From a virus: 21,378 nucleotides of DNA. Positions 1 to 15,274 of the stretch are shown piece after piece. The position numbers and the translations under genes were made by a program. How positions within the stretch are numbered: the stretch's first letter is position 1; each line of letters starts with the position of its first letter. The stretch lies in UHGV virus genome UHGV-0079970; one strand, written 5' to 3'. Under the pieces are notes generated by a model. It was given only the letters and a program-made list of their open reading frames with translations. It did not search any database and had not been told where the DNA came from.

Positions 1-1219
1 GCCCCGATGGCGTGTCGCCGCCGGGCGAGGGTTTGATTTCCGGTGCCTTACCACTAATGAAGGCTAAGGTGCGACCGGCTACGTTCAGAATAGCAGTTGC
101 CATACGATCGGGAATAATGCCACGACGCGCCCATGAGCTGAAATGCGTCGGGCGATTTGATGATACCCAGTTTTTGTTCGTTCGGGATGCCGAACCGTAA
201 TAACCAGACCCGGCAATATCAGGATCTTCTGACGGGTTGTTTGTCGGTGTATTAACTCCGCTACCATCGGTCATAAAGGGAACAAAATAAATCTGCTGGG
301 ATTCTTTACCTTTATATGCACCATATACCACTTCATATTGCGTACCGTGTTCTTGTTTCCACGCGTATGTCGTGTCGCCACAAATCCAGGGGACTGATGC
401 CGGACTTCCACCGTGACACTGCGCCGCCAGCCCGGCAAGGTCAGCACGGAACTGCTGTACCATTGCAAGAAATGCTGCTGGCTGCTGGGCGTAACTGGCA
501 TTCGTCATATCGAATTCCCCCTGCATCCAGCATATCGCCAGCAAAACGTTTTTCGGGTTTTTCTGCAATGCTGCCTTCGTGCGGAAAAGCAGATCCTGAT
601 ATAACGGCTTACCCACTCCCCAGCGAGCCGAATCCTGACTGGCCCCCGTGGACTCGCTGAATGTCCCCTCCGTGCCCTGGGTGAATGCCGAACCACCACG
701 ACAGCATGGTACCAGCAGGATCCCCGCGTTATTAGGGATATACGGAAGCAGTTTTTTGGCAATATGTAAGCCCTGTCCGACACAGCCGTACTGCCCTTTG
801 CTCAGGTCAGCCCGGGGATGGTTAATCGTACTCATATCCTGAACATCATGCAGACAATGGTCAGCAGGAATGATGTCGTTAAATACGCATACTTCACCAC
901 CGGGAGTCACTGTGTTACGACGGGCCAGTTGCTTAATGCGCGGATGGGGCGCATCGTATGAATCCGGCAGCGGAAGCCCTTCACCGTAAGCCATGGCATT
1001 GGACTGCCCGGCCAGTACGATGACGTAGTACCACTCCGGCTCAGTTGCACCACTGACGACCACATCACCTTCTGCTGCAATCGCCTGCATCAGGGTATAA
1101 GGGGTTATGGCCACCGGACTACCAAACGGCTGCCAGCCCTCTTTCAGTTTATGTGTCAGCTTTTCCGCAAGATCTGACGGCGACGCCGCCCTGACAACAT
1201 CATAGTGTTTAAATGCCAT
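1..1219 (-). CDS. NanS-p-like SGNH/DUF303-family esterase (putative sialate O-acetylesterase), N-terminal 406 codons; 3' end beyond window
   Basis: Uninterrupted minus-strand frame from ATG at 1219 (GGAGG 6 nt upstream) to position 1, verified codon by codon; absent from the ORF track because no stop is in the window. Begins MAFKHYDVV and contains the block VLAGQSNAMAYGEG (GQSN, SGNH-hydrolase type). Sits after a late-region tRNA cluster as in Stx phages. Family assignment is from memory. Confidence 0.5.
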   Translation of the reverse strand, partial: MAFKHYDVVRAASPSDLAEKLTHKLKEGWQPFGSPVAITPYTLMQAIAAEGDVVVSGATEPEWYYVIVLAGQSNAMAYGEGLPLPDSYDAPHPRIKQLARRNTVTPGGEVCVFNDIIPADHCLHDVQDMSTINHPRADLSKGQYGCVGQGLHIAKKLLPYIPNNAGILLVPCCRGGSAFTQGTEGTFSESTGASQDSARWGVGKPLYQDLLFRTKAALQKNPKNVLLAICWMQGEFDMTNASYAQQPAAFLAMVQQFRADLAGLAAQCHGGSPASVPWICGDTTYAWKQEHGTQYEVVYGAYKGKESQQIYFVPFMTDGSGVNTPTNNPSEDPDIAGSGYYGSASRTNKNWVSSNRPTHFSSWARRGIIPDRMATAILNVAGRTLAFISGKAPEIKPSPGGDTPSG

Positions 1220-1412
1220 GAATCCTCCCGGCCGGGATAATATTGTGAGTAAAATGAGGAGCGGGCTGAAGTCCGGAAGTTACAGGACAATGGCAGAAGA
1301 GAGACAACAGCCCGCAATACGAAAAAGGCCGCGCTATTGCGCAGAGTGATTACTGTCGGATATTATTCGCCAGCTGAAATATTACTTCACGTTTTGTTGT
1401 TTATTCCTTGCC

Positions 1413-1441
1413 GCCCGCGTCTCCCAGCGCGGGCTTTTTTT
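1413..1441 (+). terminator. Rho-independent terminator-like hairpin (plus strand)
   Basis: 7-bp GC stem GCCCGCG (1413-1419) / CGCGGGC (1428-1434), 8-nt loop, followed by T7 (1435-1441). Confidence 0.45.
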
Positions 1442-1444
1442 GTC

Positions 1445-1472
1445 CATAAGAAAGCCCCTCCGGAGAGGGGCT
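1445..1472 (-). terminator. Second hairpin, possible minus-strand terminator (weak T tail)
   Basis: 8-bp stem AGCCCCTC (1453-1460) / GAGGGGCT (1465-1472), 4-nt loop; on the minus strand followed by TTTCTTAT. Together with the 1413-1441 hairpin forms a back-to-back pair. Confidence 0.3.
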
Positions 1473-1708
1473 GGAGAGTGGCGCTATGTGCCATTGCATG
1501 GTGCCGGGTGCCTCCCGGTGAATTCAGTACCAGCACCTGAATCCGCGATTATCCCATATACCTACTCGCTGATTGCCCCTCCGCACAGGGGGATTCACCA
1601 TGCCAGTTTCTTTTAACAAACTCCCCGCAAACCAGACAACAGTCAACCGCCTAAATTGTGAGACATTTAAAAAAAAGGCCCACAAAAGCGAGCCAGGGAA
1701 AATAAGTG

Positions 1709-1785
1709 TGGCGCGTTGTACTGGATTCGAACCAGTGACCGATTGCTTAGAAGGCAATTGCTCTGTCCGGCTGAGCTAACAACGC
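1709..1785 (-). tRNA. tRNA-Arg (anticodon TCT)
   Basis: Minus-strand 77 nt, GCGTTGTTAGCTCAGCCGGACAGAGCAATTGCCTTCTAAGCAATCGGTCACTGGTTCGAATCCAGTACAACGCGCCA: 7-bp acceptor stem, D arm, anticodon loop CTTCTAA, T arm GGTTCGAAT, encoded CCA. Confidence 0.85.
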
Positions 1786-1798
1786 ATGATGCAGATAA

Positions 1799-1875
1799 TG
1801 GACCGCCATCGGGGACTTGAACCCCGCGCAACCAGCTTCGAAGGCTGGCGCTCTTTCCTGATGAGCTAATGGCGG
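1799..1875 (-). tRNA. tRNA-Arg (anticodon TCG)
   Basis: Minus-strand 77 nt, CCGCCATTAGCTCATCAGGAAAGAGCGCCAGCCTTCGAAGCTGGTTGCGCGGGGTTCAAGTCCCCGATGGCGGTCCA: cloverleaf with C1-G72 acceptor pair, anticodon loop CTTCGAA, T loop TTCAAGT, encoded CCA. Confidence 0.75.
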
Positions 1876-1882
1876 TATGTGA

Positions 1883-1958
1883 TGGTGGCCCTTGCTGGAT
1901 TTGAACCAGCGACCTGGCGATTATGAGTCGCTCGCTCTCACCACTGAGCTAAAGGGCC
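1883..1958 (-). tRNA. tRNA with CAT anticodon, tRNA-Ile2 (lysidine) type / Met
   Basis: Minus-strand 76 nt, GGCCCTTTAGCTCAGTGGTGAGAGCGAGCGACTCATAATCGCCAGGTCGCTGGTTCAAATCCAGCAAGGGCCACCA; anticodon loop CTCATAA; closely resembles E. coli tRNA-Ile2 as I recall it. Confidence 0.8.
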
Positions 1959-2007
1959 GGGAGCAGAATAATAATGGTGCGTAATTAATTCTGCAATCTC
2001 ATCCGTT

Positions 2008-3057
2008 TCAAACGATTAAATCCTGAACTTCCCTGACTGTCTGCTCAAAACGTCCGGTCTCCAGTTCAACGCCAATCGCACGACGCCCGAGCGCCAGTGC
2101 AGCTTTTACCGTTGAACCTGAGCCCATAAAAAAATCTGCAACCAGGTCTCCCGGACGACTGCTTGCGCTGATTATCTGCTGCAGCATTTCTGCCGGTTTT
2201 TCGCACGGATGTTTCCCGGGATAGAACTGCACCGGTTTATGTGTCCACACATCCGTGTACGGCACCTGCGCCGTCACACCAAAATACCGCCGCAGATGCT
2301 TATATTCACTATGCAGCTCCACATACTGCCGGTTCAGTGACGTATACGTATCCACCAGCTGGTGGTGGGGCTTTTCCAGTTCACCGCGCTGATGTTTCTC
2401 TTCTGCCACCCGGGCAAACAGCGACTGTAATTTCAGATAATCGCTTTCGTTCGGTAGCTGCCACTGACTGGCACTGAACCAGTGCGACACCATGTTTTTC
2501 TTTCCTGTGGCATCTGCAATCTGTTTTGCCGTTATCCCCAGGGCAGCTCGCGCATCACGAAAGTAAGAAATCAGCGGGGCCATCACATGCTGTTTCAGTG
2601 CACTGCCCTTCGCCGCATACCCGGCATCTTTCGGACGATACGGCCCCTGATAATGTTCCGCGAACAGAATGCGCTCTGTGGCGGGGAAATACGCCCGCAG
2701 GCTTTCCTTGTTGCATCCGTTCCAGCGTCCGGACGGCTTCGCCCAGATAATATGGTTCAGCACACTGAAGCGTTCACGCATCATGATTTCGATATCAGAT
2801 GCCAGGCGATGACCACAGAACAGGTAAAGACTTCCGGCAGGTTTCAGCACCCGCCAGAACTGCGCCAGACACTGGTCCAGCCACTTCAGGTAATCATCGT
2901 CGCCCTTCCACTGGTTATCCCAGCCCTCGGGTTTCACTTTAAAGTATGGCGGGTCTGTGACTATAAGATCGACAGAGTTTTCCGGTAAGGTCTGGATAAA
3001 TTCCAGGCAATCAGCGTTGATTAACTCACAACTGGATATTTTTACAGTATTAGCCAT
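2008..3057 (-). CDS. N6-adenine (or N4-cytosine) DNA methyltransferase, beta-class
   Basis: 349-aa ORF; motif IV LIVTDPPYF near the N-terminus and AdoMet motif FFMGSGST near the C-terminus (order typical of beta-class amino-MTases). Confidence 0.8.
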   Translation of the reverse strand: MANTVKISSCELINADCLEFIQTLPENSVDLIVTDPPYFKVKPEGWDNQWKGDDDYLKWLDQCLAQFWRVLKPAGSLYLFCGHRLASDIEIMMRERFSVLNHIIWAKPSGRWNGCNKESLRAYFPATERILFAEHYQGPYRPKDAGYAAKGSALKQHVMAPLISYFRDARAALGITAKQIADATGKKNMVSHWFSASQWQLPNESDYLKLQSLFARVAEEKHQRGELEKPHHQLVDTYTSLNRQYVELHSEYKHLRRYFGVTAQVPYTDVWTHKPVQFYPGKHPCEKPAEMLQQIISASSRPGDLVADFFMGSGSTVKAALALGRRAIGVELETGRFEQTVREVQDLIV

Positions 3058-3193
3058 AGATCAATAAGCACTTCTCTGATAGGCTCATACCGCTTTTGCG
3101 CAAAGCAGATGGGCCTGAGGTTTGCTTGTGACCCCAACGCATGAGCAGATGGCTGGCAGGTGCCGCTAACACCCACCAGCCGCCCATTACCAC

Positions 3194-3221
3194 AAATAAA
3201 AAAGCCTTCACTGAGGAAGGC
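3194..3221 (-). terminator. Rho-independent terminator (minus strand) at the 3' end of the small wHTH gene
   Basis: Minus-strand 6-bp stem GCCTTC / GAAGGC (plus coords 3216-3221 / 3204-3209), 6-nt loop, then TTTTTTATTT; the stop codon of the small ORF lies inside the stem. Confidence 0.5.
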
Positions 3222-3405
3222 GTCTGTAACAACCGAACTGATAATCTGCCAGACCCGCCATAACAAGCTGGGTCAGTATTAACTGGCAACGTTCGCGTGA
3301 AAGGTAAGTATTCTGCGCAATTTCCCCGACGGTCGCCGGTTCGGTGACGCTTAATTCATTAAACACCACTCTGGCAGTTTCGGTCATATCCTGCTGTTTT
3401 AGCAT
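3208..3405 (-). CDS. Small winged-helix-like DNA-binding protein (65 aa), hypothetical regulator
   Basis: ATG at 3405 preceded by AAGGGA; product MLKQQDMTETARVVFNELSVTEPATVGEIAQNTYLSRERCQLILTQLVMAGLADYQ... has a helix-turn-helix-like pattern (VGEIAQNTYLSRERCQLILTQL). The ORF track extends it to 3642, which I consider unlikely. Transcribed divergently from the DUF262 operon. Confidence 0.4.
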   Translation of the reverse strand: MLKQQDMTETARVVFNELSVTEPATVGEIAQNTYLSRERCQLILTQLVMAGLADYQFGCYRRLPQ

Positions 3406-3528
3406 GTCTTTTTCCCTTTTCTGGTTAACGTGACATACCAATAACTCTTGTCTGAAAAGCCAGCAAGCTGAAAGACCGGTATTCGCAACCACCAGCACGT
3501 TTAACGTACTGCGCCGTTTTTCGGACAC

Positions 3529-3548
3529 AAAAAACCGCCTGGCGGCGG
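3529..3548 (-). terminator. Possible minus-strand terminator upstream of the small wHTH gene
   Basis: 5-bp GC stem (plus 3535-3539 CCGCC / 3544-3548 GGCGG), 4-nt loop, followed on the minus strand by T6 (plus 3529-3534 A6). Short stem, so weak. Confidence 0.3.
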
Positions 3549-3597
3549 GTTTAAGCTGTGTGGCGTAGTAACCACTCTTAACACGATATAATATTTT

Positions 3598-3626
3598 TTG
3601 CGTACGCGTTATAGTTTTCTTACAAT
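3598..3626 (+). promoter_or_regulatory. Candidate sigma70 promoter for the DUF262-HEPN operon
   Basis: -35 TTGCGT (3598-3603), 17-bp spacer, -10 TACAAT (3621-3626), in an AT-rich intergenic region; SD AAGGAA (3646-3651) 7 nt before the ATG at 3659. A separate perfect TATAAT at 3587-3592 lacks a -35. Confidence 0.35.
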
Positions 3627-3658
3627 CTATTTCCAACTCCAATTAAAGGAACAGTGAT

Positions 3659-4816
3659 ATGACCACACTCAAAGAACTCAAAGAAGAGCTTGCTCAGATT
3701 CAAGATGAAAACGCGAAAAATAGAAAAAAAGCTGAAATTGCAGCCTTGGTCACTTCTGCCGACAACGAGATTAGGCTTGCTCAGAGAAATATTGGATACA
3801 ACGTACGTGAATGGACCGTTGAATTAATTGTACAAAAGTATGGCAATAATCTTGAAACTGACAAAAACGAACTTTTTATTCCTGATTATCAACGCGATTA
3901 CAAATGGGATATCAAAACAGCCTCTCGATTCATCGAAAGTATATTATTAGATTTTCCAATCCCGTACCTCTACATCTCCGACGTATTTAATGAAGATCCT
4001 GAGTTGGATGGTCGTGTAGAAATTATTGACGGTTCACAAAGGATTCGCTCAATTTACTACTTTTGGAACAATCAGTTTGAATTGAAAGACTTAAAAGAAC
4101 TCAAAAGTTTAGAGGGCTTCAAATTTTCAGATCTTTTGGCTAGCCGCCAGAGGCGATTTTTAAGGGCATCACTAAGATTTATTGAATTGAAAGGTGATGT
4201 TGAGGAGCAACATAGAAGAGATTTATTCGAAAGAATAAATTCAGGTGTTAAGAGACTGGAAGCGATGGAGGTTAGACATGGTTCAGATGCGGCCACTTCA
4301 ATTTTCTATAGGGATGTTGTGACTCCTTGCTCAACAAATCCACTTTTCGCTAGTCTAGCTCCATTATCAGACCGGAAACGTTCGAATGGCGATCATCGTG
4401 AGTTAGTTTTGAGATTTTTTGCATACTTAAATGATTTAGAAAATTATAAGGGTTATGTCGCTCCTTTTATTGACAATTATCTTAATGTTCAGGCCGAAAG
4501 GGTCACACAACAAGATGTAGACAAATTTAAACATGATTTTGAAAGCATGCTTGCTTTTGTAGATGCTCATTTCCCTATGGGGTTTAAAAAGACACCAACA
4601 AGCAAAACCACCCCCCGTGCTAGATACGAAGCCATAGCAGTGGGAACTGCTCTTGCCTTAAAAGCCAATCCACATCTACAGGCTCCGGTTATTCCTGTAG
4701 GAGACTGGCTGTTTGGGGAGGAATTTGAAACCATAGTTACTGCTGATAGTGCCAACAACACCAGCCAACTCAAAAACAGAATATTTTATGTCAAAGATAA
4801 ATTATTAGGAATGTAA
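3659..4816 (+). CDS. DUF262 / ParB-like (GmrSD N-terminal type) domain protein, 385 aa; no recognisable DUF1524/HNH nuclease domain
   Basis: Motifs DYQRDYKW and IIDGSQRIRS (DGQQR-type DUF262 signature), later LFERINSGVKRLEAME; N-terminal ~60-aa coiled-coil-like extension. Strong RBS. AT-rich (~37-41% GC in hand-counted 100-nt samples). Confidence 0.75.
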   Translation: MTTLKELKEELAQIQDENAKNRKKAEIAALVTSADNEIRLAQRNIGYNVREWTVELIVQKYGNNLETDKNELFIPDYQRDYKWDIKTASRFIESILLDFPIPYLYISDVFNEDPELDGRVEIIDGSQRIRSIYYFWNNQFELKDLKELKSLEGFKFSDLLASRQRRFLRASLRFIELKGDVEEQHRRDLFERINSGVKRLEAMEVRHGSDAATSIFYRDVVTPCSTNPLFASLAPLSDRKRSNGDHRELVLRFFAYLNDLENYKGYVAPFIDNYLNVQAERVTQQDVDKFKHDFESMLAFVDAHFPMGFKKTPTSKTTPRARYEAIAVGTALALKANPHLQAPVIPVGDWLFGEEFETIVTADSANNTSQLKNRIFYVKDKLLGM

Positions 4817-4818
4817 CT

Positions 4819-5508
4819 ATGAGTTTGATTGATTTAAGAGATGAATACGAAGAAAGAGCAAGAGATATTATGGAATTGCTTTCTCTTGCGTCATCTTTAG
4901 AGGCTCAGACTCAGCAGTTAGATCAGCAAACGCATAAAGATGAAATAGAATCAAATACCCTTAGGGTTAACATTTTAAAATCATCCGTGCACATGATGCT
5001 GTACAATCAGGTTGAAAACACTGCCAGAGGATGCATTGAGTCAATTTATGACCATTTGCAAGATAATGAAGTAAATTACGCATCACTCAGGGAGAAATTC
5101 CAAGTAAATATCTTGCACCGTATCATTTCAGATAATGAATCGGGAAAATCTCTTTATCAAAAAATTGGTTCCGATATATCTAAAAGGATCATTTCAGCCT
5201 CATTAAACATACGTAAAGAATTCAATGGTAATGTTTGCAAGTCTGTATTGCACAAAATAACACAAGCTTACGGAATAACTGTTGCAAACTCACCAGAGTG
5301 TAGAAATGGTGTTGACTTAGATTTACTTAAAGATATCAGAAATGAGCTGGCACATGGAAGTACCAGCTTTTCTAAAAAAGGTCAAATAGACCCTTTAGAA
5401 GAAGTCAAATCGAGGTCAGAAAGAATTGATCTATATTTGCGTTTATTAATCAACTCAACAGAAAATTATATTACCTCTAACGGGTATTTATCCCCTCAAC
5501 ATGTCTGA
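4819..5508 (+). CDS. HEPN-motif protein (predicted RNase-type effector), 229 aa
   Basis: ATG 2 nt after the upstream stop (translational coupling) with AGGAA SD; canonical R-[N]-x3-H motif RNELAH (5338-5355) in the C-terminal third; rest mostly helical by composition. Confidence 0.6.
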   Translation: MSLIDLRDEYEERARDIMELLSLASSLEAQTQQLDQQTHKDEIESNTLRVNILKSSVHMMLYNQVENTARGCIESIYDHLQDNEVNYASLREKFQVNILHRIISDNESGKSLYQKIGSDISKRIISASLNIRKEFNGNVCKSVLHKITQAYGITVANSPECRNGVDLDLLKDIRNELAHGSTSFSKKGQIDPLEEVKSRSERIDLYLRLLINSTENYITSNGYLSPQHV

Positions 5509-6517
5509 TAAATGTTTCCCCTATTATCTGACCAATTATAGGGGGAACAGCATTTCCAATCATTGTCCCCAATTTTTGGAATGAAAAAGGCGTCTCCTTG
5601 TCAAGGAATTTATAATCCATTGGAAAGGATTGCAAAATCGCAGCTTCACGCAAAGTTATGGCGCGATTTTGCTCAGGATGGCCAAATCGTCCATTTCCAT
5701 ATCCATAACACTGGGTAGTTATCGTAGGGCTAGTATCGTCCCAAACCATCCGTCCATAAACGCTTTTATAGGTAGCACCTGAATTCTTTTTATGACAGTC
5801 TGCTCTAATTTCTTCAGGCCAGTCATCCCACGTACCACCAGGTAAAGAATGCATGATTCGTTTAAGATTGATATCCATCAATTTAGGCGAACGATGCAAG
5901 GGATCGCTTTCCAGCTTCTCACCTGCCCCTACTTTTGGCAACCTACCAATAGCATCCTTAACAGTAACTTTACGGCTAACTTTTTTTTGATCAAGGCTGA
6001 TCGGCCCCAATTGGGAACCAATTAGAATTAATCTACGTCTATTTTGAGGTAAGCCATACTCAGAACATCTTACAACGTCGTACCACAAATGATATCCAAG
6101 AGTCTTTAATGCACTAACAAACCCTTCAAAAACCTTATGGTTTCTAAGTTGAGGAACATTCTCCATCGTCACAAGCTCTGGCATGACATCACTTACAAGC
6201 CTTTGAAACTCATATAACAAACGCCACTTTGTATCGTCTTTACGGCTATTTGGATTACGATACTTGGAAAACGGTTGGCAAGGAGCACATCCAGCAAGCA
6301 ATCTAATATTTCCTTCCTTGAACATAGCAGACACATCGCAGGATTGCAGTTCTGTAACTGACTGATTAATGAACTGCGTTAAAGGATTATTGCTCTCAAT
6401 AGCAAAACGGCAGGATTCATCAATATCAATACCATGAGAAACCTCAATCCCGGCTTTTTTTAGCCCAAAAGTTAAGCCCCCCGCACCACAAAAAATGTCT
6501 ACTGCCTGAATGTTCAC
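5477..6517 (-). CDS. C5-cytosine DNA methyltransferase (Dcm/type II M family), 346 aa
   Basis: Motif I DIFCGAGGLTFG, catalytic PCQ in GCAPCQPFS, ENV, QNRRRL, GNAV. Start is GTG at 6517 with GGAG 6 nt upstream. 3' end overlaps the HEPN gene tail-to-tail by 32 bp. Confidence 0.9.
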   Translation of the reverse strand: MNIQAVDIFCGAGGLTFGLKKAGIEVSHGIDIDESCRFAIESNNPLTQFINQSVTELQSCDVSAMFKEGNIRLLAGCAPCQPFSKYRNPNSRKDDTKWRLLYEFQRLVSDVMPELVTMENVPQLRNHKVFEGFVSALKTLGYHLWYDVVRCSEYGLPQNRRRLILIGSQLGPISLDQKKVSRKVTVKDAIGRLPKVGAGEKLESDPLHRSPKLMDINLKRIMHSLPGGTWDDWPEEIRADCHKKNSGATYKSVYGRMVWDDTSPTITTQCYGYGNGRFGHPEQNRAITLREAAILQSFPMDYKFLDKETPFSFQKLGTMIGNAVPPIIGQIIGETFIRHVEGINTR

Positions 6518-6580
6518 AAGATTCTCCGTTACTTTATCCTGGTATTATATACACATAAAAGTTGGGAAAGTAGAACGATT

Positions 6581-6949
6581 TTACATAGAACTTAAGTCAT
6601 TGTAGTAAATGAAAAATGACAAGCAGCCATCAATAAACCCCATTGCTGTTTGCATCTCTTTCCGTATTGTTCCATCTGAACATTTCCGTTTTTTAGCAAT
6701 AGCGCGTAATGAGATACCAATAACAAAGTGAGCAATGATCAACTCATACTCTTCGGGTTTATACTTTCGCAACCGAGCCACACAACCGTCTATCATGATA
6801 CCTTCGTCATCATCACACTGGAGACGTGACTTTTTACCGTGTGGTAAAAGCCCCTTGAAGCCTGCTGCTATCGGCTGCCAGTCCACACCACTGTTATCTG
6901 CTGCAGCCCAGGCCCCCCAACGATCTAAAACTTCGTACATATCACGCAT
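6581..6949 (-). CDS. Q: Late-gene antiterminator Q-like protein (QuuD/Q-type), 122 aa
   Basis: N-terminus MRDMYEVLDRWGAWAA... and Cys cluster (C-x-D-D-D...GC...CSDG) match what I recall of lambdoid Q/QuuD proteins; lies between replication and late-region genes; start overlaps the upstream stop (TGATG). Confidence 0.65.
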   Translation of the reverse strand: MRDMYEVLDRWGAWAAADNSGVDWQPIAAGFKGLLPHGKKSRLQCDDDEGIMIDGCVARLRKYKPEEYELIIAHFVIGISLRAIAKKRKCSDGTIRKEMQTAMGFIDGCLSFFIYYNDLSSM

Positions 6950-7206
6950 CAGCGCAGTACCTCCTGCACCAGTTTTTCAAACTTACCAACTCTGGTTTCC
7001 AGCTCTGCCACACAATCCACCAGCTCATCCACTGCTTTTTGTGCACGGTGTTTTGCCTGCATCAGTTCCCTGAGCGCTGGCACCATATCCCGACGAATGG
7101 CATCTTTTGTTACACCTGTTTTTTCCAGTTGTTCCGCCTGCCGCAACATTTCCTGTGCCTGTTTACGTAATTGCTCAGGGGTAAAAGTCATTGTCTGGTT
7201 GTTCAA
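6949..7206 (-). CDS. Hypothetical small coiled-coil protein (nin-region position), 85 aa
   Basis: TTG start at 7206 with GGAG 8 nt upstream, overlapping the DnaB-like stop; translationally coupled to Q. Alternative ATG at 7191 has no SD. Confidence 0.45.
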   Translation of the reverse strand: MNNQTMTFTPEQLRKQAQEMLRQAEQLEKTGVTKDAIRRDMVPALRELMQAKHRAQKAVDELVDCVAELETRVGKFEKLVQEVLR

Positions 7207-8603
7207 AAGAAACGCTCCATCTTACTGCTGTCAGTTCGTTTGTTGCTGTATCTGCGCGGCTGGGGCTGTTGCATTGGTGTGGAAAGAACCCGGGCACTCT
7301 CCTGGTCCACAGGCAGAAAATGTCCGTTATGAAAACGCCGGTAAATGGTCCCGAGCGTGCCATTACGCTGTTTCGTGATGTTGATTTCTGCTATGCCTCT
7401 GGCCTGAGTTTCCGGGTTGTATACCTCCTCCCTGTAAAGCATCAGAATGATGTCGGCATCCGCCTCGATTTCCCCGGAGTTTTTCAGGTCCGAGTTCATT
7501 GGGCGTTTATTGGGTCTGGATTCCACGCCACGGGAGAGCTGGCTCAGAGCAATCAGCGGAAAACCGCCGGATTTTGCCAGGCTTTTAAGTCCCTTTGAGA
7601 TTTCCCCCACAGCAAGGTCGTGACGCCCCGTGCTGCGGGTTTTAATCAGGCCGAGGTAATCGACCACAACCAGCGCCGTTTCCGGATGCTTCATCCGGTG
7701 GTGCTTCGTGGTTGCACATATCTCATCAATGGTCAGGTTTGCCTGGTCCACCATCCAGATATTACGCCCCGTCATTCGTCCCACGCCCTGCGAGAAACGC
7801 GCCCAGTCTTCATCTTCAAAACGGGCAACAGACTTAAGACGGGATACCGGCATTCCACCGGCAGCAGACACCATACGTTCACCAATCTGGATGTTCGCCA
7901 TCTCCATGGTGAACAGAAGCACGCCATGCCCCTGCTCAGTCACCTTGTCGATGATGTCCAGCGCAAGTTCGGTTTTCCCCATCGAAGGACGGGCGGCAAT
8001 GAATACCAGGTCTCCGGGCTCCATACCGCCCGTTTTTGCGTCCAGTTCATCAATACCGGTCATCAGCGCCCTGGATTTCTCCAGTCCCTGATTGCGGCAT
8101 TCAACACGGTCGACCACTTCCGGAAGGACATCATCAATGTGAACCGGCTGAATGACGCCCTTTCCGGTCGACAGTGAGGCCATCATGTTCTGCGCATCCT
8201 TCAGGGCATCCTCGGCTGCTTCACAGGTATACGCATCACGTAAATTCTGTAATGCTTCAGTCAGTGTTTTTTCTGCATCACGCAGTGCGGCATTGCGCCG
8301 CAACGCTGCGACATAGTGCTCCAGTGAAGACTTCACCCAGGTTTTGCGTCCGGTGTCGGTAATCACCGGGGCAAGTTCCGGCATCTCATTGCACAGCAGT
8401 ACGGGGTCAATGACGCCGGATATGCGAGCCTGTCTGCAAATCCCCGCGTAAATATCCCGGTACTGACGCACAAAAAATACATCCGCCGGAAGTGTGGCCA
8501 GAATATCCATCACTTCCGGATCGGCCCCACGCAGAAAAAACGCACCGATGACAGCGCCTTCCAGGTCATCGTTACGCCATGCCGGGGTGTTCTGGCTGGT
8601 CAT
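7203..8603 (-). CDS. Replicative DNA helicase, DnaB family (phage-encoded)
   Basis: 466-aa ORF with Walker A ARPSMGKT, Walker B-like LVVVDYLGL and a RecA-like C-terminal domain; follows the DnaC-like gene with overlapping stop/start. Confidence 0.9.
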   Translation of the reverse strand: MTSQNTPAWRNDDLEGAVIGAFFLRGADPEVMDILATLPADVFFVRQYRDIYAGICRQARISGVIDPVLLCNEMPELAPVITDTGRKTWVKSSLEHYVAALRRNAALRDAEKTLTEALQNLRDAYTCEAAEDALKDAQNMMASLSTGKGVIQPVHIDDVLPEVVDRVECRNQGLEKSRALMTGIDELDAKTGGMEPGDLVFIAARPSMGKTELALDIIDKVTEQGHGVLLFTMEMANIQIGERMVSAAGGMPVSRLKSVARFEDEDWARFSQGVGRMTGRNIWMVDQANLTIDEICATTKHHRMKHPETALVVVDYLGLIKTRSTGRHDLAVGEISKGLKSLAKSGGFPLIALSQLSRGVESRPNKRPMNSDLKNSGEIEADADIILMLYREEVYNPETQARGIAEINITKQRNGTLGTIYRRFHNGHFLPVDQESARVLSTPMQQPQPRRYSNKRTDSSKMERFF

Positions 8604-9499
8604 GCGGCAACACCTCCGATACGAGAACGGTAGCTGGGCCAGTTAAACGACAACCAGTTGCGCCCGCCATCGGTGATCCTGTCGGCAATCCGGGGACTGA
8701 TGAACGCCCACAATTCTTCCGGTGAAAGGTTGCTGATCAGGATAGTTGGCAAAATACCCTCATACCGGGCATTGATAATTTCCTGCAAAATGGCCATTTC
8801 AGCCGCACTGCCAAACTGAACGCCGACTTCGTCGACAATCAGCAAATCCAGTGACGCATAATGCTCAATGACGTCATCCGCTGTTTTTTCACTGTCATTC
8901 CGCCAGCAGTTTTTCACAGCCCGGGTAAGGCGCATCACGTCGGTGATCTCCACACTGGCCAGATAGTTACGGATGATGTGTTTTGCCATTGATACCGCCA
9001 GATGATTTTTCCCGGTACCGCAACTGCCGGTCATAACAAGACTGGTACCGTTCTCCAGCATATCTGGCCAGTTCTCCGCATAGCGGCGACAGGCCGCAAG
9101 ATTTCTGGCTGCGTCAGGATTAACCTCCAGATAATTATCAAACTCGCAGTCCCGAAAACGCAGAGCAATTCCGGCGTTATCAGTCAGTTCTTCCGCCTTG
9201 AGGGACGACAGTTCCATGGTCAAATCACTGGCCTCAGCGATCAAGCAGTCAGGGCAGCATGAAATTTTTTCTCTGTCCTCGCCATTACGATCGATCCACA
9301 CCAGTATATGCGTACGATATTTACCGTGTTTTTCGCAATATCCGCGACCTTCACGCATCAGGCAGGAACGATAAGGCCATGGCTTTTCGCCCTTCTGAGC
9401 AAATGCAATCTCTGCCCGTAACTCATCCATTTCTGCCCGTAACTCATCCATTCGCGCCTGTAGTCTTGTTTGTTTCTCACGTTGGTCAATCGTCATCAT
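8600..9499 (-). CDS. DnaC/IstB-like AAA+ helicase loader
   Basis: Walker A GSCGTGKNHLA, Walker B LLIVDEVG. Probable start is ATG at 9499 (GAGG 8 nt upstream) rather than the GTG at 9508 used in the ORF track. Confidence 0.85.
   Translation of the reverse strand: MMTIDQREKQTRLQARMDELRAEMDELRAEIAFAQKGEKPWPYRSCLMREGRGYCEKHGKYRTHILVWIDRNGEDREKISCCPDCLIAEASDLTMELSSLKAEELTDNAGIALRFRDCEFDNYLEVNPDAARNLAACRRYAENWPDMLENGTSLVMTGSCGTGKNHLAVSMAKHIIRNYLASVEITDVMRLTRAVKNCWRNDSEKTADDVIEHYASLDLLIVDEVGVQFGSAAEMAILQEIINARYEGILPTILISNLSPEELWAFISPRIADRITDGGRNWLSFNWPSYRSRIGGVAA
9411..9452. repeat. Perfect 21-bp tandem duplication inside the DnaC-like gene
   Basis: tctgcccgtaactcatccatt occurs twice in tandem (9411-9431, 9432-9452), encoding MDELRAE-MDELRAE in frame on the minus strand. 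Confidence 0.9.
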
Positions 9500-9509
9500 C
9501 GCTGTCACC

Positions 9510-10496
9510 TCAGAATGTCAATTTGTTACTGGATTTACCGAATTTGTCAGACATGGCTCCCAGGCCAGCCAGGACATCGACCTGTCGCTGTCGCCCACCT
9601 CCGTGAGCGGCTGGCTGTTGCCAGTAATCTTCGAAGTGACGATCGGGTCCAAAGAACGTCGCAGCCTGCTTCACGAACTGTGTGCCGGTATTTCCTGTAG
9701 CACGTACCCAGGCGGCATACCGCTTCACGCCATCAAGCATGGTCTCCGGTTTTATTCCCTCCCTGATACGGGCTTTCCAGGCTTTGAAGGCTGCTGACTT
9801 GGAATTGCCACCAGCACGTTTGGGATATTCCTGCCAGGCCTGTTCAAATTCCGGTGAATATTCCTGTCGGGCAGAACGCGCAGACGCGTCAGCGGATGCA
9901 TCAATAGTGTTTTTAGTCTCCGTTGTAATCTCTGTAGTAATCTCTGTATTTGTATCAACATTCGGCGTATCCCCTGTTCCGTTATGACGTCGGGGGGTGT
10001 TCCGTTTTAACGTAATAGCTGTATCGCTGATTGCATTATTGCTGTTACTTTCTGGCGAAACAGAAGAAGGTGTGGTGATGGCCGCAATTGCCTGTGGGTT
10101 GATCCCGACAAACAAAATATTGCTGCATTTCACCCCATCGAGCATTTCCACCGTGCGTAAATCCAGAGTAATAAACCCTGCATCGCGCAGACGCTTCAGC
10201 GCATCTGCGGTTTCCCTTTTCCCGAAACCAAACTGCTCAGCAAACGCCTGGTAGCTTCTTTGCAGTTTGTCGCCCTGAAAACGCTTGCGATATCCCAGCA
10301 ACGCTCCGGTGTGCTCATCCCTGACCTCTGTCGGGCGGTACCAGTAAACGATCTCTGAAAGCAGAGCGATAGCCGTCGCATCCGGACGCCCACTGGGTAG
10401 TCGAATATATTTCCACCAGTTCGCAGGTGTAACATTGCCGGAAATATTAATTTGACCAATAGCCATAACTTCCGGTGTGGGGGCGTAACGGCTCAT
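9510..10496 (-). CDS. Replication initiator, O-like (phage replisome organiser)
   Basis: 328-aa ORF with AAGGAGG RBS, directly upstream of and coupled to the DnaC/DnaB-like genes; N-terminal domain, low-complexity central linker (TNTEITTEITTETKNT) carrying DNA repeats, C-terminal domain. Family call is by position and architecture. Confidence 0.55.
   Translation of the reverse strand: MSRYAPTPEVMAIGQINISGNVTPANWWKYIRLPSGRPDATAIALLSEIVYWYRPTEVRDEHTGALLGYRKRFQGDKLQRSYQAFAEQFGFGKRETADALKRLRDAGFITLDLRTVEMLDGVKCSNILFVGINPQAIAAITTPSSVSPESNSNNAISDTAITLKRNTPRRHNGTGDTPNVDTNTEITTEITTETKNTIDASADASARSARQEYSPEFEQAWQEYPKRAGGNSKSAAFKAWKARIREGIKPETMLDGVKRYAAWVRATGNTGTQFVKQAATFFGPDRHFEDYWQQPAAHGGGRQRQVDVLAGLGAMSDKFGKSSNKLTF
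9911..9956. repeat. Iteron-like short tandem repeats inside the O-like gene (candidate origin)
   Basis: gtaatctctgta repeated in tandem (9925-9936, 9937-9948) with degenerate flanking copies. Lambda ori lies at the equivalent place within O (established knowledge). Confidence 0.35.
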
Positions 10497-10792
10497 ACAA
10501 CCTCCTTCCGCGGCATGAGAATTGTGTAGCCACGCGCAGGTTGTAGTCTGGCTTTTGCATCAATAGTAAGCGTTGCAATTTTTCGGATATGAAGATAACC
10601 AGCTCTTTCCAGTGCCAGGGTTTCCCTGAATATCGCTTGCTTAGAACAACAGCAGAAATCAGCAAGCACCTGATGATCAATAACTCTCTCGCCTTCACCG
10701 TCTGAAGAACCCGACATCAAAACACGCAACATAATTAGGCGCTGAATCGGGTTATCGAAAGCACATCCGCACACAAACTGAAAACAGTTCAC
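10493..10792 (-). CDS. Hypothetical protein, 99 aa
   Basis: GTG start with GGGAGG 6 nt upstream; stop overlaps the O-like start; part of a chain of coupled genes. Confidence 0.45.
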   Translation of the reverse strand: MNCFQFVCGCAFDNPIQRLIMLRVLMSGSSDGEGERVIDHQVLADFCCCSKQAIFRETLALERAGYLHIRKIATLTIDAKARLQPARGYTILMPRKEVV

Positions 10793-11013
10793 GCCACACC
10801 TCCCAGACGCTTAAACATTTTTCCAGACAGAAATACCGCCAGAGGGTAACTGATGGTGTAGCTACGCCCCTGTAGTTCGCACACGACTTTCTGGCTTTCA
10901 GCGTTGACTAGGCAAACCCGCAGAACGTGACCGTTGCTGGTGGCGAACCACTGCCCCACACGGGGGCAACGGTTGTATCGGTGATACAGGGAATTAACGA
11001 TGTGGCGGATCAT
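10789..11013 (-). CDS. Hypothetical protein, 74 aa
   Basis: ATG with GGAGG 7 nt upstream; stop/start overlaps with both neighbours. Confidence 0.45.
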   Translation of the reverse strand: MIRHIVNSLYHRYNRCPRVGQWFATSNGHVLRVCLVNAESQKVVCELQGRSYTISYPLAVFLSGKMFKRLGGVA

Positions 11014-11204
11014 GGACGCACCTCCGCCGTAGTTACGTATTTAACCGGGCTACCTTTCATTGAGATGGTTTCACACATCTCTGCCGCTTTCAGTTCCGCT
11101 GTTTTTCTGGATTTATAGCGACGGTGCCAGACAGATACATCCGTGCGAACTGATACATCGTTTCTGTATTCCGTAGTGGAGATGATGATTTCGTAACTAA
11201 TCAT
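11010..11204 (-). CDS. Hypothetical protein, 64 aa
   Basis: ATG with AAGGAGG 7 nt upstream; ATGA overlaps with both neighbours. Confidence 0.45.
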   Translation of the reverse strand: MISYEIIISTTEYRNDVSVRTDVSVWHRRYKSRKTAELKAAEMCETISMKGSPVKYVTTAEVRP

Positions 11205-12052
11205 GGGCGAACCTCCTTGTCAGAACCATTCAGCCTGGAATCAACAAGTGCAGCGCCAAAAACAGCATCACCAACACGGTCGTACAGTTTGCTAGCCAGC
11301 GGAGATTCAACGGCCTTAAGCATTGGATAAAGCTGGCTTGTCCAGATTTGATGGATTTCACGCAAATGCAGGTATACGCCTCTGGCGTTTCGTGCGACAG
11401 CTGACATATCAGACGCATCGGCACCTGATAAACTCTTCTCCATCAGGTTAAAGGCGTTGATGTATGCCTCTTTGAACTGGGCAGCACGTTTACCAGTGAA
11501 GCCCATGGCAAGAAACGCAAAACCGTCGCGGGTGATTTGGTAACAAGGGAGTTTGCGGCCTGATGCGTCGGTGTATTCACTTAACACAAAATTGTGTTCA
11601 GTAAATTCAGCGGAACATTCGAGGTTTCTAATTCTATCTAAAACCCGCTCATGCCGTTTAGTAAAGTAATTAGCTACTGCAAGAGATGTGGTGACAACGC
11701 GACCATTGATAATCGTGATTTCAGGGTGAGATTGGGTTGGGAGAGTAGTCATGGTGACAGCCCCTATGTTGAATTCAATGAACTCACCACCAAGGCTTTC
11801 CACGACCATATAGGTGGTGAGACGTACAGGGGTGGAAATACCGGTCAACATAGAACCCGGCCCAACCGAAGTTGGCCCTGCACGCCCCACCATAATTTGG
11901 GTGTAACGATGCTCATGACACGAAAAAACCGCATGAGCGCGGTTGTGCTCTATATTGAATTTCGGGTTTCCACGCCCGGCACCCGCTTTATAAGGTGCCT
12001 GAGCAGTGTAACGTCCCGGAATTGCAGAATCAATATGCTGGTGGCGGATCAT
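11201..12052 (-). CDS. Rha-family phage regulatory protein with an N-terminal extension, 283 aa
   Basis: C-terminal half has Rha-like motifs (SLAVANYFTKRHERVLDRIRNL ... ITRDGFAFLAMGFTGKRAAQFKEAYINAFNLME); N-terminal ~100 aa (IDSAIPGRYT..APYKAGAG..IMVGRAG) is paralogous to the next gene. GGGAGG RBS. Confidence 0.6.
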   Translation of the reverse strand: MIRHQHIDSAIPGRYTAQAPYKAGAGRGNPKFNIEHNRAHAVFSCHEHRYTQIMVGRAGPTSVGPGSMLTGISTPVRLTTYMVVESLGGEFIEFNIGAVTMTTLPTQSHPEITIINGRVVTTSLAVANYFTKRHERVLDRIRNLECSAEFTEHNFVLSEYTDASGRKLPCYQITRDGFAFLAMGFTGKRAAQFKEAYINAFNLMEKSLSGADASDMSAVARNARGVYLHLREIHQIWTSQLYPMLKAVESPLASKLYDRVGDAVFGAALVDSRLNGSDKEVRP

Positions 12053-12711
12053 AGGTGCACCTCCCGTTGATTACGACGGAACGCGGAGTGACCCTGGACG
12101 GTTTCAGCCTCATGGAATGCTTCAATACAGCTCTCGTAGTACCGCATTGTGCGCAGACTTAACCCAAGCTGAAGCATCATCAGACCATCAAGGGTGATGT
12201 AATAACCACGCAGGGAGTCACCGTAGATGTGATAAGTACCCGGTATGAAATTGCGGGTAAAAAACTCGCGTGAGCAGTTCAGATACTCGATTTTGTCAAC
12301 GATGTTCTGGTGCATGCGCTTGAAATGGCAGGCAACATGCAGGGAGAAAATAACGGCCTTGCCGTTGACGACTTCGATTTTTAGGAATGGGGAAGTTAGG
12401 ACAGTAGCCATGATGGCAGCCTCCGTTGACAGTGAAAAACTTCCACCACCGGAAACGCCAATTTCACTGGTGGTGAACTGGACGGGGTTGGCGTAACCGG
12501 CGTCAACGGAGACCGGCGCACCTTTCGGTGCCCCCGCCCAGCCCACCATAATCTGGATGTGAGCAAATGCGGACGATAAAAAAGACGCTGGCGCGTCATA
12601 CATCGCCGTTGACAATTTCAGGACGCCAATCCCGGCACCCGCTTTATAAGGTGCGGAGACAGTGTAACGTCCCGAAATTGCAGAATCAATATTTGGTCTT
12701 GAAATGATCAT
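12049..12711 (-). CDS. Paralog of the preceding gene, Rha-like (more diverged), 220 aa
   Basis: Aligns along its length with the 11201-12052 product (MIISRPNIDSAISGRYTVSAPYKAGAG ... IMVGWAG ... FSLHVACHFKRMHQNIVDKIEYL ... ITLDGLMMLQLG). No obvious SD at its ATG. Confidence 0.5.
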   Translation of the reverse strand: MIISRPNIDSAISGRYTVSAPYKAGAGIGVLKLSTAMYDAPASFLSSAFAHIQIMVGWAGAPKGAPVSVDAGYANPVQFTTSEIGVSGGGSFSLSTEAAIMATVLTSPFLKIEVVNGKAVIFSLHVACHFKRMHQNIVDKIEYLNCSREFFTRNFIPGTYHIYGDSLRGYYITLDGLMMLQLGLSLRTMRYYESCIEAFHEAETVQGHSAFRRNQREVHL

Positions 12712-12819
12712 ATAGCTGCTGATATCTTTAGAACTGTTCTTGGATGTTTCGGAGCCGTTTTATGCGAAACAGCTCCCCGTTATTGATGTTGAGTGAGCCG
12801 GGTTACTCCCGGCTTTTTT

Positions 12820-13527
12820 TCACCGCTGCCAACCAATAACCTGAAATAACCCCATTTTCGGGTGATACCAGCGAGTCCCTCGCGGTTCTGCTTCCTCCAT
12901 AACCCGATAAAAAGCAGCCATAAACGGTTCCACAGCAACAATTGCGCGACGTGACAACAATCCGTCCGGCGTCATGAACTCATGTGTGTCTGTAGGAATT
13001 TGATAGGCGTTCACCAGATTGCGGCATTTATCATCTGACAAACCGGTTTTTGCTTTCAGTTGGCGATATCCGGCATAGCCCTCACGAATAGTGCCCTTTT
13101 TAATTTGCTCGACTGTTTCAGCAACGTGGCTGACTTTTTCTTCCACCTGAGTGATCCGTTTCTGTTGGCGAACGGCTTCAAGAGCCATCGCGGCAACCAT
13201 TTCGATTTCGCTCATTGGCTTACGGATCTGTTCTTCCAGTTCGCGCCAGCGATCTACCAGGCGAGCTGTGAATTCAGGACAGAGCTGTGCGACGACAATG
13301 ATGCTGTCGCGCTTACCTCGTTCACCTTCGAATACATACGCGCTAGAAAATCGGCGAGGCCCAAGTGATTGTTTATTCTCAATTTCCACAGTCTGTGGAA
13401 ATTGGATGATTCCCTTTTTAGCCAGTGTTTCAATAGTTCTCTTAACACTATCTGGTCGGCTTCCCACCAGCTCTGCGATCTCAACGCTGGTCATGGATGC
13501 TTTGCCGTTAAAAATTGCGGTGTTCAT
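12820..13527 (-). CDS. Phage regulatory / antirepressor-like protein with N-terminal Rha/AntA-like DNA-binding region, 235 aa
   Basis: N-terminus MTSVEIAELVGSRPDSVKRTIETL resembles the start of Rha/antirepressor domains; AGGAGA RBS 8 nt upstream; first long gene of the rightward-equivalent early operon. Confidence 0.5.
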   Translation of the reverse strand: MNTAIFNGKASMTSVEIAELVGSRPDSVKRTIETLAKKGIIQFPQTVEIENKQSLGPRRFSSAYVFEGERGKRDSIIVVAQLCPEFTARLVDRWRELEEQIRKPMSEIEMVAAMALEAVRQQKRITQVEEKVSHVAETVEQIKKGTIREGYAGYRQLKAKTGLSDDKCRNLVNAYQIPTDTHEFMTPDGLLSRRAIVAVEPFMAAFYRVMEEAEPRGTRWYHPKMGLFQVIGWQR

Positions 13528-13751
13528 TGTTGGTCTCCTGTGGGCTTGTCATCTTCTGTATTCGCTAGACTTGGGTGTGTATATGGAATGCTCGGATCCA
13601 GATGACAAAGAATGGCAACATCCTCCGGAACACCTCGCGTTTTCCACTTTCCAACACCTTGACTGCCACGAGGCCTTCCTTTCTTTGGGAACCTGCGACC
13701 AATAGCGGCATTGGTTTTAAATTGAATTTTTAATATTTCATAAAGGGTCAT
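13524..13751 (-). CDS. Hypothetical small basic protein in the cro position, 75 aa
   Basis: Divergent from cI with a ~110-bp intergenic region carrying repeated operator-like motifs; stop overlaps the next gene start. No clear HTH or SD, so function and even reality are uncertain. Confidence 0.3.
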   Translation of the reverse strand: MTLYEILKIQFKTNAAIGRRFPKKGRPRGSQGVGKWKTRGVPEDVAILCHLDPSIPYTHPSLANTEDDKPTGDQQ

Positions 13752-13862
13752 TCTTTAGTCTCACACCAGATACTTTGTTATTCAACGATGTTAACCACAG
13801 GAATCCAAAGTATCAAGAAATTCTGTTACTTTAGTATCAACAGCCATGAGAGGAGAAGAAAA
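13752..13862. promoter_or_regulatory. Immunity-region intergenic with repeated operator-like motifs (OR-like)
   Basis: GATACTTTG (13769-13777) and its reverse complement CAAAGTATC (13806-13814) form a perfect 9-bp inverted repeat; a further AGTATCAA copy at 13833-13840; the same motif recurs downstream of cI. Confidence 0.4.
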
Positions 13863-14519: not shown

Positions 14520-14544
14520 CCAGAAACAAAACACAAAAAGAAAC

Positions 14545-14580
14545 CAAAGTATCAAAAATCACTTGCCACACCTTGATACC
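14545..14580. promoter_or_regulatory. Operator-like inverted repeat downstream of cI (OL-like), possible promoter for the early-left genes
   Basis: CAAAGTATCAA (14545-14555) and inverted TTGATAC (14573-14579), same motif family as upstream of cI; possible -35 TTGCCA (14563-14568) and -10 TACCAT (14586-14591) with 17-bp spacer. Confidence 0.3.
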
Positions 14581-14622
14581 TTAGTTACCATAAAACAAAG
14601 TTCGTAACTGAGGTATCATCTC

Positions 14623-15126: not shown

Positions 15127-15274
15127 CATAATCGCCGCTTCGCCCCTCAAGGTACATGCGAACATTTTTATCAATCATTGCGGAAACAGTCTTAATATGA
15201 AAACACTTCTGAGACTCGCTATATAGCAGAACATATAAGTCAGCTGAGGAAACCATGAAAAAGTTCGAAAACAT
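15014..15274 (-). CDS. Possible small minus-strand ORF, 86 aa (uncertain)
   Basis: ATG at 15274 with GGAG 7 nt upstream, but overlaps the 3' end of the XRE gene and the start of the next plus-strand gene; may be spurious. Confidence 0.2.
   Translation of the reverse strand: MFSNFFMVSSADLYVLLYSESQKCFHIKTVSAMIDKNVRMYLEGRSGDYVTIGIGSSVEELREIRGKLVEMRHGVAAPHFLVAPEE

Follow-up and report, generated by a model that had tools for sequence, protein, structure and literature searches.

The stretch analysed here (the window) comprises 21,378 nucleotides of the virus genome UHGV-0079970, a lambdoid prophage of E. coli, and between positions 3406 and 6580 it contains a low-GC cassette of three genes next to the gene for the antiterminator Q. 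The first two, encoding a DUF262 protein and a HEPN protein, lie on the plus strand as a likely operon; the third, encoding a DNA cytosine-5 methyltransferase (C5-MTase), lies on the minus strand and runs towards them. An earlier note on this DNA had read the cassette as a horizontally acquired defence or restriction-modification (R-M)-like module. The genes and their junction are as follows (positions are those of the window).

3659..4816, plus strand: DUF262 (ParB-like nucleoside triphosphatase, NTPase) protein, 385 amino acids; Pfam PF03235 (GmrSD_N/DUF262), 1.1e-25
4819..5508, plus strand: HEPN protein of the MAE_28990 family, 229 amino acids; PF18737, 3.8e-16 (above the gathering score), and PF18735, 6.7e-8
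5477..6517, minus strand: C5-MTase, 346 amino acids; PF00145, 9.5e-54 over positions 2-322 of 324
5477..5508, both strands: tail-to-tail overlap of 32 nt between the 3' ends of the HEPN and MTase genes, from the coordinates of the open reading frames (ORFs)

These profile matches bear out all three of the domains that had been proposed. In the DUF262 protein, the PDYQR (residues 75-79) and DGSQR (124-128; D124-G-S-Q-R128) motifs are invariant in the homologue alignment, and there are further matches to the PADLOC profiles NsnA (PDLC03877; 5.6e-46) and PD-T4-2_A (PDLC04027; 4.3e-27 over residues 72-336). The best folds for its AlphaFold2 (AF2) model (predicted local distance difference test score, pLDDT, 83) are the ParB/Noc CTPase domains, BrxU and SspE, the latter two matching only partially, and residues 215-383 are all-helical in the model. 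Past residue 206 there is no Pfam match, and neither a DUF1524, an HNH nor a His-Me nuclease domain was found in the protein, which is predicted to act as a DNA sensor. Its gene ends 2 nt before the start of the HEPN gene. In the HEPN protein, the Rx4H motif (R174-N-E-L-A-H179) is invariant across 12 homologues, down to 41% identity, and the protein is predicted to be the RNase effector. Its AF2 model has a pLDDT of 65, and Foldseek returned only generic helical bundles from the PDB; with PADLOC at E<=10, the sole match was RTasHEPN (0.0078), and PD-T4-2_B gave none. The MTase additionally matches TIGR00675 (6e-35) and the PADLOC models MTase_II (1.6e-87) and DrmMII (4e-85). It has a full-length domain with all of the catalytic motifs, namely, FCGAGG (residues 9-14; motif I), PCQPFS (79-84; IV), ENV (119-121; VI), QNRRR (158-162; VIII) and GNAVPP (321-326; X), and on this basis it is expected to be catalytically competent.

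The three genes belong together wherever they have been found in E. coli: among 5426 complete genomes, 107 gave a match to any of them and all 107 carry the full set, 73 at an identity of at least 99% and 34 at ~87%. The same layout, with the DUF262 and HEPN genes on one strand and the MTase gene on the other, is seen in prophages of Klebsiella and Yersinia, in a Pseudomonas island beside McrBC, in a P2-like prophage of Proteus (in the gpA-portal interval), in the P2-like phage P24B2, in the Moraxella Mcat phages, in Halomonadaceae chromosomes and in cyanobacteria. A survey of one genome per species, covering 100,044 species, gave 79 loci. The DUF262-HEPN pair is near-invariant across ~70 loci in an ORF-level jackhmmer search, and a convergent C5-MTase gene follows straight after the HEPN gene at every proteobacterial locus, as well as in one clade of cyanobacteria and in further lineages. 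A set of 27 non-redundant three-gene loci has orthologous MTases, with 48-94% identity to that of the window (one exception, at 30%), and the target-recognition region is the most conserved segment of the enzyme; moreover, the 3' ends of the HEPN and MTase genes meet or overlap (-65 to +11 nt) in all but one of these loci. The pairwise-identity matrices of the three proteins are correlated, with r = 0.91 for DUF262/HEPN, 0.79 for DUF262/MTase and 0.81 for HEPN/MTase. Conserved linkage and co-divergence therefore point to an MTase that is genetically dedicated to the effector pair. When the DUF262 proteins are placed in a neighbour-joining tree, every deep branch belongs to MTase-linked forms, and those without an MTase comprise a derived cyanobacterial clade and one Flavobacterium locus; judged from this tree, the three-gene form looks ancestral.

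MTases of this orthogroup (54-58% identical over the full length) are also the partners of two other types of effector. One of these is a GHKL (HATPase_c_3) protein of 654-665 residues, whose gene is convergent and overlapping with that of the MTase (L099/L100 4001-7016, L103-L105 and L108-L109), the same arrangement as in the cassette. The GHKL protein matches the PADLOC type II restriction endonuclease (REase) model (3e-92) and, faintly, SduA_C; the MTase identity is ~54-55% where aligned in L100 and L103, and examples occur in a Pasteurella P2-like prophage and on metagenomic contigs. The other is found in DISARM class 2 loci of Pseudomonas and Azotobacter (L106/L107 and L110), where an MTase that is 56-58% identical is followed by Vsr, DrmC (5e-108), DrmB (5e-85) and a helicase of ~1330 residues. 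The orthogroup is thus shared, whereas the effector in the cassette is DUF262 plus HEPN and not DrmABC or a GHKL nuclease. Self-marking is the task of the MTase in DISARM and, in general, in restriction-modification pairs. Since this orthogroup serves as the self-marking partner of both DISARM and the GHKL REase, the same role is the most economical one to assume here.

The composition of the block sets it apart from its flanks, as the earlier note had proposed from hand counts. The GC content of 3406-6580 is 38.7%, against 52.4% for 1-3405 and 50.7% for 6581-13500, and no other 3.2-kb stretch of the window is as low in GC; the sliding GC falls from 0.50-0.56 to 0.35-0.42 between ~3500 and ~6800, and the tetranucleotide distance from the phage backbone is maximal at 3001-7000. 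The values computed for the genes (DUF262 38.3%, HEPN 34.8% and MTase 41.3%) are close to the hand-counted ones (41%, 37%, 38% and ~43%), and at third codon positions GC is 0.30-0.35 in the three cassette genes, the flanking genes for the N6-MTase and DnaB having 0.57-0.60. Maximum-likelihood segmentation of positions 1-13000 with two breakpoints placed the breaks at ~3565 and ~6765 (38.0% GC inside, 51.6% outside; delta logL 90). The second break lies within the Q gene, at least the 3' half of which (43.6% GC overall) falls within the low-GC block. A second low-GC stretch, at 13500-17000 (0.39-0.44), corresponds to the immunity/early-left region, with a LexA-family repressor and neighbours according to the annotation of a closely related prophage (L001); the cassette is, therefore, the lowest-GC region of the prophage and not its only compositionally atypical part. 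None of what the earlier note had named as contrary evidence was found: the composition differs from the flanks, the domains are present and the block is not a core module of this phage group, as phiP27, with the same backbone, has a different gene in the slot.

The limits of the block and the signals around it are listed below.

3530..6950, both strands: horizontal exchange unit, comprising the pR'/terminator element, the DUF262, HEPN and C5-MTase genes and Q, from blastn homology and GC
3525..3548, minus strand: intrinsic terminator-like hairpin just downstream of pR' (stem 3548-3535, T-run to 3525), from a terminator scan
3576..3592, minus strand: late promoter pR' core, with 20/22 identity to ATATCATGATAAGAGTGGTTAC of Sp5
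3598..3611, both strands: TTGCGTACGCGTTA, with the palindrome GCGTACGC at 3600-3607; no backbone sequence closer to the cargo is conserved
3598..3626, plus strand: candidate promoter of the DUF262-HEPN operon, TTGCGT-17-TACAAT, back-to-back with and overlapping pR'
6544..6549, minus strand: TATAAT hexamer, candidate -10 of the MTase gene, in the 63-bp spacer between Q and MTase genes; poor -35
6581..6949, minus strand: antiterminator Q, 122 amino acids (PF06530, 3.3e-47), an allele co-inherited with the cassette

The boundaries were drawn by blastn of window 3000-7300 against other cassette-bearing prophages. Identity is 86.6% over 3530-6951 in E. coli (L004), 73.6% over 3552-6949/50 in Klebsiella (L006/L008), and 67% over 3758-6930, plus 3549-3611, in Yersinia (L010). 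In L004 and L006, the homology block has its left end at the terminator hairpin and its right end exactly at the start codon of Q. The phiP27 backbone is 89-90% identical to that of the window, but here the homology ends at 3589 and returns only at 6903, within the N-terminus of Q. Judged from these alignments, the exchanged unit is Q together with the three cassette genes. Over the homology-defined unit 3530-6950, the GC content is 39.0% (z = -14.7 against the flanks), and the low GC of Q is accounted for by its being exchanged along with its neighbours. The description of the cassette as inserted downstream of Q has, therefore, to be amended, as the homology block (~3530/3552-6950) takes in Q itself; horizontal acquisition as such is supported, because the two E. 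coli alleles (at least 99% and ~87% identity) reside in two different prophage backbones, further copies (67-74% identical) reside in Klebsiella and Yersinia prophages, and phiP27 has a different gene. The ~87% allele is carried by a decaying CPS-53-like prophage (L004; NZ_CP054224.1 4292256-4309243), in which the KilA-N, baseplate, gp53-like and helix-turn-helix genes are annotated as incomplete and Q and the three cassette genes are intact; their persistence amid decaying neighbours suggests selective retention.

At the left end of the unit is a ~100-nt sequence (3529-3630) that is found in 358 phage records and includes pR'. The -10 of this promoter is either TATCGT (3588-3583) or TATTAT (3592-3587), with a predicted start near A3576. 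The Sp5 counterpart in strain Sakai, ATATCATGATAAGAGTGGTTAC with its hairpin, sits directly after the stop codon of Q933. Differential RNA-seq has placed the PR' start 258 nt upstream of the 3' end of tR' (StxS study, PMC7547250). In our Sp5 locus (L094), the T-run of the second post-Q terminator ends at 1603; reading this terminator as tR' puts the start at ~1346, inside the shared element, 7 nt downstream of TATCAT and aligned to A3576 on the minus strand of the window. The hairpin at 3525-3548 is kept in nine phage loci and matches the first hairpin after PR' in Sp5. By this comparison, late transcription would run leftwards from ~3576, away from the cassette. A location of pR' directly after Q was considered and rejected: in SfII, 569R4 and the Stx1a phages, only 3-30 bp separate Q from the opposite-strand cargo, and the cargo varies among phages that share the pR' element. 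An Rfam scan of 3300-7000 for pR'/StxS-like or other RNA families gave no match at E<=1.

With the pR' homologue at ~3576-3592 and the cassette on its Q side, the three genes lie outside the late transcript and do not occupy the position of stx. Two statements of the earlier note fall with this: the stx genes of phiP27 and Sp5 come after pR'/tR' and the tRNAs, and not between Q and pR', where the cassette is; and the plus-strand operon is not antisense to late transcription, which would lead away from it, but converges on transcription of Q and the MTase gene. The plus-strand operon itself stands for the DUF262 and HEPN genes and does not extend to the MTase gene, which is on the minus strand, the strand of early-to-late phage transcription, and co-directional with Q. 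In sum, the idea of a defence-type mobile cargo is upheld and the placement and transcriptional context given for it are not.

The sequence TTGCGTACGCGTTA, in the upstream part of the pR' element, is identical in the window and in seven other loci (L003, L004, L006, L010, L091, L092 and L093), in all of which the Q is annotated as antiterminator Q (PF06530 being shown for those of the window, L006 and L010), and is not present in Sp5, whose Q is Q933; Q may bind this sequence, which may also, or instead, provide the -35 of a cargo promoter. As to the latter, a TAnnnT hexamer lies exactly 17 nt past TTGCGT before four unrelated cargo sets (TACAAT in the window, and TATATT, TAAGAT and TAAACT), although the Yersinia locus, with the same cassette, has a -10-like TATATA that requires a 16-nt spacer. 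This positional conservation lends comparative support to the promoter that had been proposed at 3598-3626. A consensus promoter scan flagged neither this promoter nor pR', both of which rest on comparative conservation. At the other end, the TATAAT at 6549-6544 is perfectly kept in L004, L006 and L010 despite the divergence of the surrounding spacer, and it is a candidate MTase promoter that would be independent of Q transcription and usable in the lysogen.

The slot between Q and pR' receives other cargo in related phages. In SfII, vB_EcoS-569R4, mEp460 and the Stx1a-converting phages, Q is followed by a 3-30 bp gap, one to three unrelated ORFs on the opposite strand, the pR' element and the late genes. 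In phiP27, the order is helicase, Q, one cargo gene, a small ORF, N6-MTase, tRNAs and stx2e; the slot gene (L22; L002 4522-5751), on the same strand, encodes a T5orf172/GIY-YIG protein that matches PD-Lambda-1 (2e-89). The two SfII genes (SfII_50/49; L091 2635-4249) match the PADLOC candidate PDC-M53A/B (2e-32 and 3e-54). No Pfam or PADLOC match was obtained for the three slot ORFs of the Stx1a-converting phages (L003 2338-4445), the two of vB_EcoS-569R4 (L092 3709-5104) or the one of mEp460 (L093 2643-3569), and these opposite-strand genes are candidates for possible defence or exclusion functions. With PD-Lambda-1-like and PDC-M53 genes among its occupants, the Q-pR' slot is itself a defence hotspot.

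Beyond pR', the window resembles the late region of a Stx phage without the toxin: tRNA-Met(CAT), tRNA-Arg(TCG) and tRNA-Arg(TCT) lie at 1709-1958 on the minus strand, and ~490 bp past them a DUF1737/DUF6645 NanS-p-like ORF, open for 426 amino acids, runs off the start of the window. No stx gene is present in the window at the position after the tRNAs that is used by phiP27 and Sp5. The prophage of Ecol_AZ146 (L001, NZ_CP018991.1), otherwise 99.9% identical, is without window 802-2601, the deletion having fused a truncated N6-MTase gene to the DUF6645 gene (both annotated as pseudogenes) with loss of the three tRNAs. In the window, a second, N6/N4 MTase is encoded at 2008-3057. In three of the four Klebsiella loci (L006/L007/L009 5007-5638), a HicAB toxin-antitoxin pair separates the cassette/pR' element from the holin gene; a Mom-like gene takes the same place, immediately downstream of pR', in Yersinia (L010 4873-5604).

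Several known systems share components with the cassette. Operons of a MAE_28990 HEPN, a ParB-like nuclease and a DNA methylase were recorded in a one-line gene-neighbourhood entry by Anantharaman et al. (2013, Biol Direct 8:15, PMC3710099), and the cassette corresponds to this entry in having a MAE_28990 HEPN with Rx4-6H, a ParB-like (DUF262) neighbour and an adjacent DNA methylase; the present analysis adds that the genes are arranged tail to tail and co-diverge, that the MTase orthogroup is shared with other systems, and which prophage slot is used. In the literature searched, we found no paper that characterizes the three-gene form, and none for WP_001025378, WP_000209290, WP_000052342 or WP_001205451. 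An experimentally validated relative is PD-T4-2 (Vassallo et al. 2022; annotated 'DUF262, HEPN', 1540 bp, from ECOR65), which protects E. coli, the native strain included, against T4 (PMC9519451). It is likewise a two-gene DUF262 plus HEPN operon of E. coli mobile elements, and its A-subunit profile matches; it differs in that the window pair measures 1850 bp and has an MTase always linked in Proteobacteria. Identity with PD-T4-2 was rejected, as the B-subunit profile gives no match to the HEPN protein. NsnA scores higher than the PD-T4-2 A subunit, and Menshen (NsnABC; Millman 2022; Li et al. 2025, PMC12065111) supplies that best PADLOC match and the same combination of ParB-DUF262 and a helical C-terminal domain, but membership was also rejected: there is no NsnB ABC-ATPase/DUF3696 and no NsnC inPIN effector, the downstream gene encoding the 229-residue HEPN protein. 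With GmrSD, BrxU and SspE, the cassette shares an N-terminal DUF262 NTPase with a DGQQR-like motif (here DGSQR), in addition to the structural matches to BrxU and SspE; it differs in its separate HEPN effector and its linked MTase, the type IV enzymes having none, and assignment to GmrSD/type IV was discarded as a DUF1524 domain was found neither with Pfam nor in the AF2 model. With regard to R-M systems proper, Pfam and PADLOC found no REase, HNH or PD-(D/E)xK domain in the cassette, and the sole predicted nuclease is the HEPN RNase. Finally, like the stx-type morons, the cassette is accessory, of low GC and situated between Q and the lysis genes of a backbone like that of Stx phages; stx, however, is in the late transcript downstream of pR'/tR', whereas the cassette is upstream of pR'.

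On balance, we consider it probable that the cassette is a single conserved anti-phage system of R-M-like type, which a phiP27-like lambdoid prophage carries between Q and pR' as lysogenic-conversion cargo. In such a system, the C5-MTase gene would be transcribed in the lysogen from a promoter of its own, and the enzyme would place its mark on a fixed motif in the DNA of both host and prophage; after induction, Q read-through would also transcribe the MTase gene. The DUF262 protein, with its ParB-like NTPase and helical, presumably DNA-binding domain, would survey DNA and, on meeting DNA without the mark, activate its operon partner; the HEPN Rx4H RNase would then degrade RNA, so that the infection is aborted or arrested. 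Defence activity, the signal that is sensed, the RNA targets and the timing of expression of each gene are all things that we infer.

A number of observations weigh against this model. DUF262-HEPN pairs with no MTase gene within ~6 kb are present at 28 loci of the cyanobacterial clade whose flanking DNA is long enough for a judgement, at nine more on short contigs and at one Flavobacterium locus, and a search for a conserved third partner in the MTase-less loci (within L036-L082) gave housekeeping neighbours only. No target motif could be assigned to the MTase: its PDB relatives (DNMT1 and M.HaeIII) match the catalytic core only, NCBIfam places it in the generic dcm superfamily, and among 120 homologues listed, of 8000 scored, none has a source name that indicates specificity. 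In the Peduovirus P24B2 (L095 2021-3041), the MTase gene is full length with a frame shift at about residue 227, reflecting either a pseudogene or an assembly error, and the DUF262 and HEPN genes are intact; a genuine shift would mean that viability does not strictly depend on methylation. For the promoters, the matches are poor (8/12 to consensus for the operon, and a -10 without a -35 for the MTase gene). To our knowledge, no demonstrated system couples a methylation read-out to a HEPN RNase, HEPN domains being RNases. Anti-phage activity is extrapolated by analogy from PD-T4-2, whose B profile fails to match the cassette HEPN protein and which was cloned and active without a linked MTase (PMC9519451). 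Moreover, the characterized DUF262 sensors (GmrSD, BrxU and SspE) respond to modified, not unmodified, DNA (PMC12065111, PMC10952713).

A bolder form of the model is possible, but we hold it only tentatively: the cassette would be an R-M system with a non-DNase 'R', in which the DUF262 NTPase senses the missing 5-methylcytosine (m5C) mark and licenses the HEPN RNase, thereby combining epigenetic self/non-self discrimination with RNA-level abortive infection. The MTase orthogroup would be portable between DISARM, the GHKL enzyme and the sensor-RNase pair, and at induction Q read-through would raise MTase levels and silence the convergent operon by transcriptional interference.

Three other explanations were weighed. 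The best of them, which we nevertheless regard as unlikely, is that two independent functions travel together: a modification-dependent, type IV- or PD-T4-2-like DUF262-HEPN pair directed against hypermodified phage DNA, and an orphan C5-MTase that shields the phage genome. MTases of other lambdoid phages do protect the phage genome from host restriction; the MTase gene here, co-directional with Q, could be a delayed-early phage gene, and the N6/N4 MTase is a second such enzyme in the same prophage. This explanation would also accommodate the MTase-less clade, the recognition of modified DNA by known DUF262 sensors, and the activity of PD-T4-2 without an MTase against T4, with its glucosyl-hydroxymethylcytosine DNA. 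Against it stand the retention of linkage, orientation and 3' overlap from enterobacterial prophages to non-prophage loci of Pseudomonas, Halomonas and cyanobacteria, the co-divergence of the genes and the service of the MTase orthogroup elsewhere as the dedicated modification subunit of restriction-type systems; furthermore, a sensor that attacks m5C could not coexist with an m5C MTase in the same cell if the two had the same motif.

Less probable still is an arrangement like that of SspABCD-SspE, where the DUF262 domain senses the self phosphorothioate mark, which stimulates NTPase and effector activity (PMC10952713). By that precedent, the DUF262 protein would bind the m5C self mark of its partner MTase, which would license the system, and the MTase would be needed for defence and not for self-protection. 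The DUF262 AF2 model has SspE as one of its top structural matches, and the tight linkage to one MTase orthogroup, together with the conserved target-recognition region, would suit a sensor co-adapted to a single motif; against this stand the MTase-less clade, the functioning of PD-T4-2 without a linked MTase and the classical self-protection roles of the same MTase with other effectors. Lastly, a selfish addiction module without a defence role, stabilizing the prophage by post-segregational killing once methylation is diluted, is very unlikely: type II R-M systems are known for such behaviour, the block is mobile and of low GC, and cassette and Q are intact amid the pseudogenized neighbours of L004, but addiction is compatible with defence and a consequence of the R-M-like model, and the cassette occupies recognized defence hotspots (the P2 gpA-portal site, the lambdoid Q-pR' slot beside PD-Lambda-1-like genes and a site next to McrBC).

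The cassette is most likely a real but fairly ordinary piece of prophage defence cargo. Roughly 2% of the complete genomes of E. coli carry it, among them those of an O25b:H4-ST131 strain and of further clinical isolates from humans. As PADLOC v2 is without a model for the HEPN partner, an automated call would probably see an orphan MTase and a lone NsnA-like gene. More generally, in lambdoid phages with this kind of Q/pR' element, the Q-pR' slot offers a compact hunting ground for defence genes, with a built-in outward promoter geometry, and several of its occupants, among them those of the Stx1a phages, mEp460 and 569R4, have no known domain. The coupling of a methylase to a sensor-RNase pair has been predicted since 2013, and the cassette is a member of that predicted family, related to the validated PD-T4-2. 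If the three genes do constitute a methylation-guarded sensor-RNase, they would tie epigenetic self-marking of the R-M type to a HEPN abortive-infection effector.

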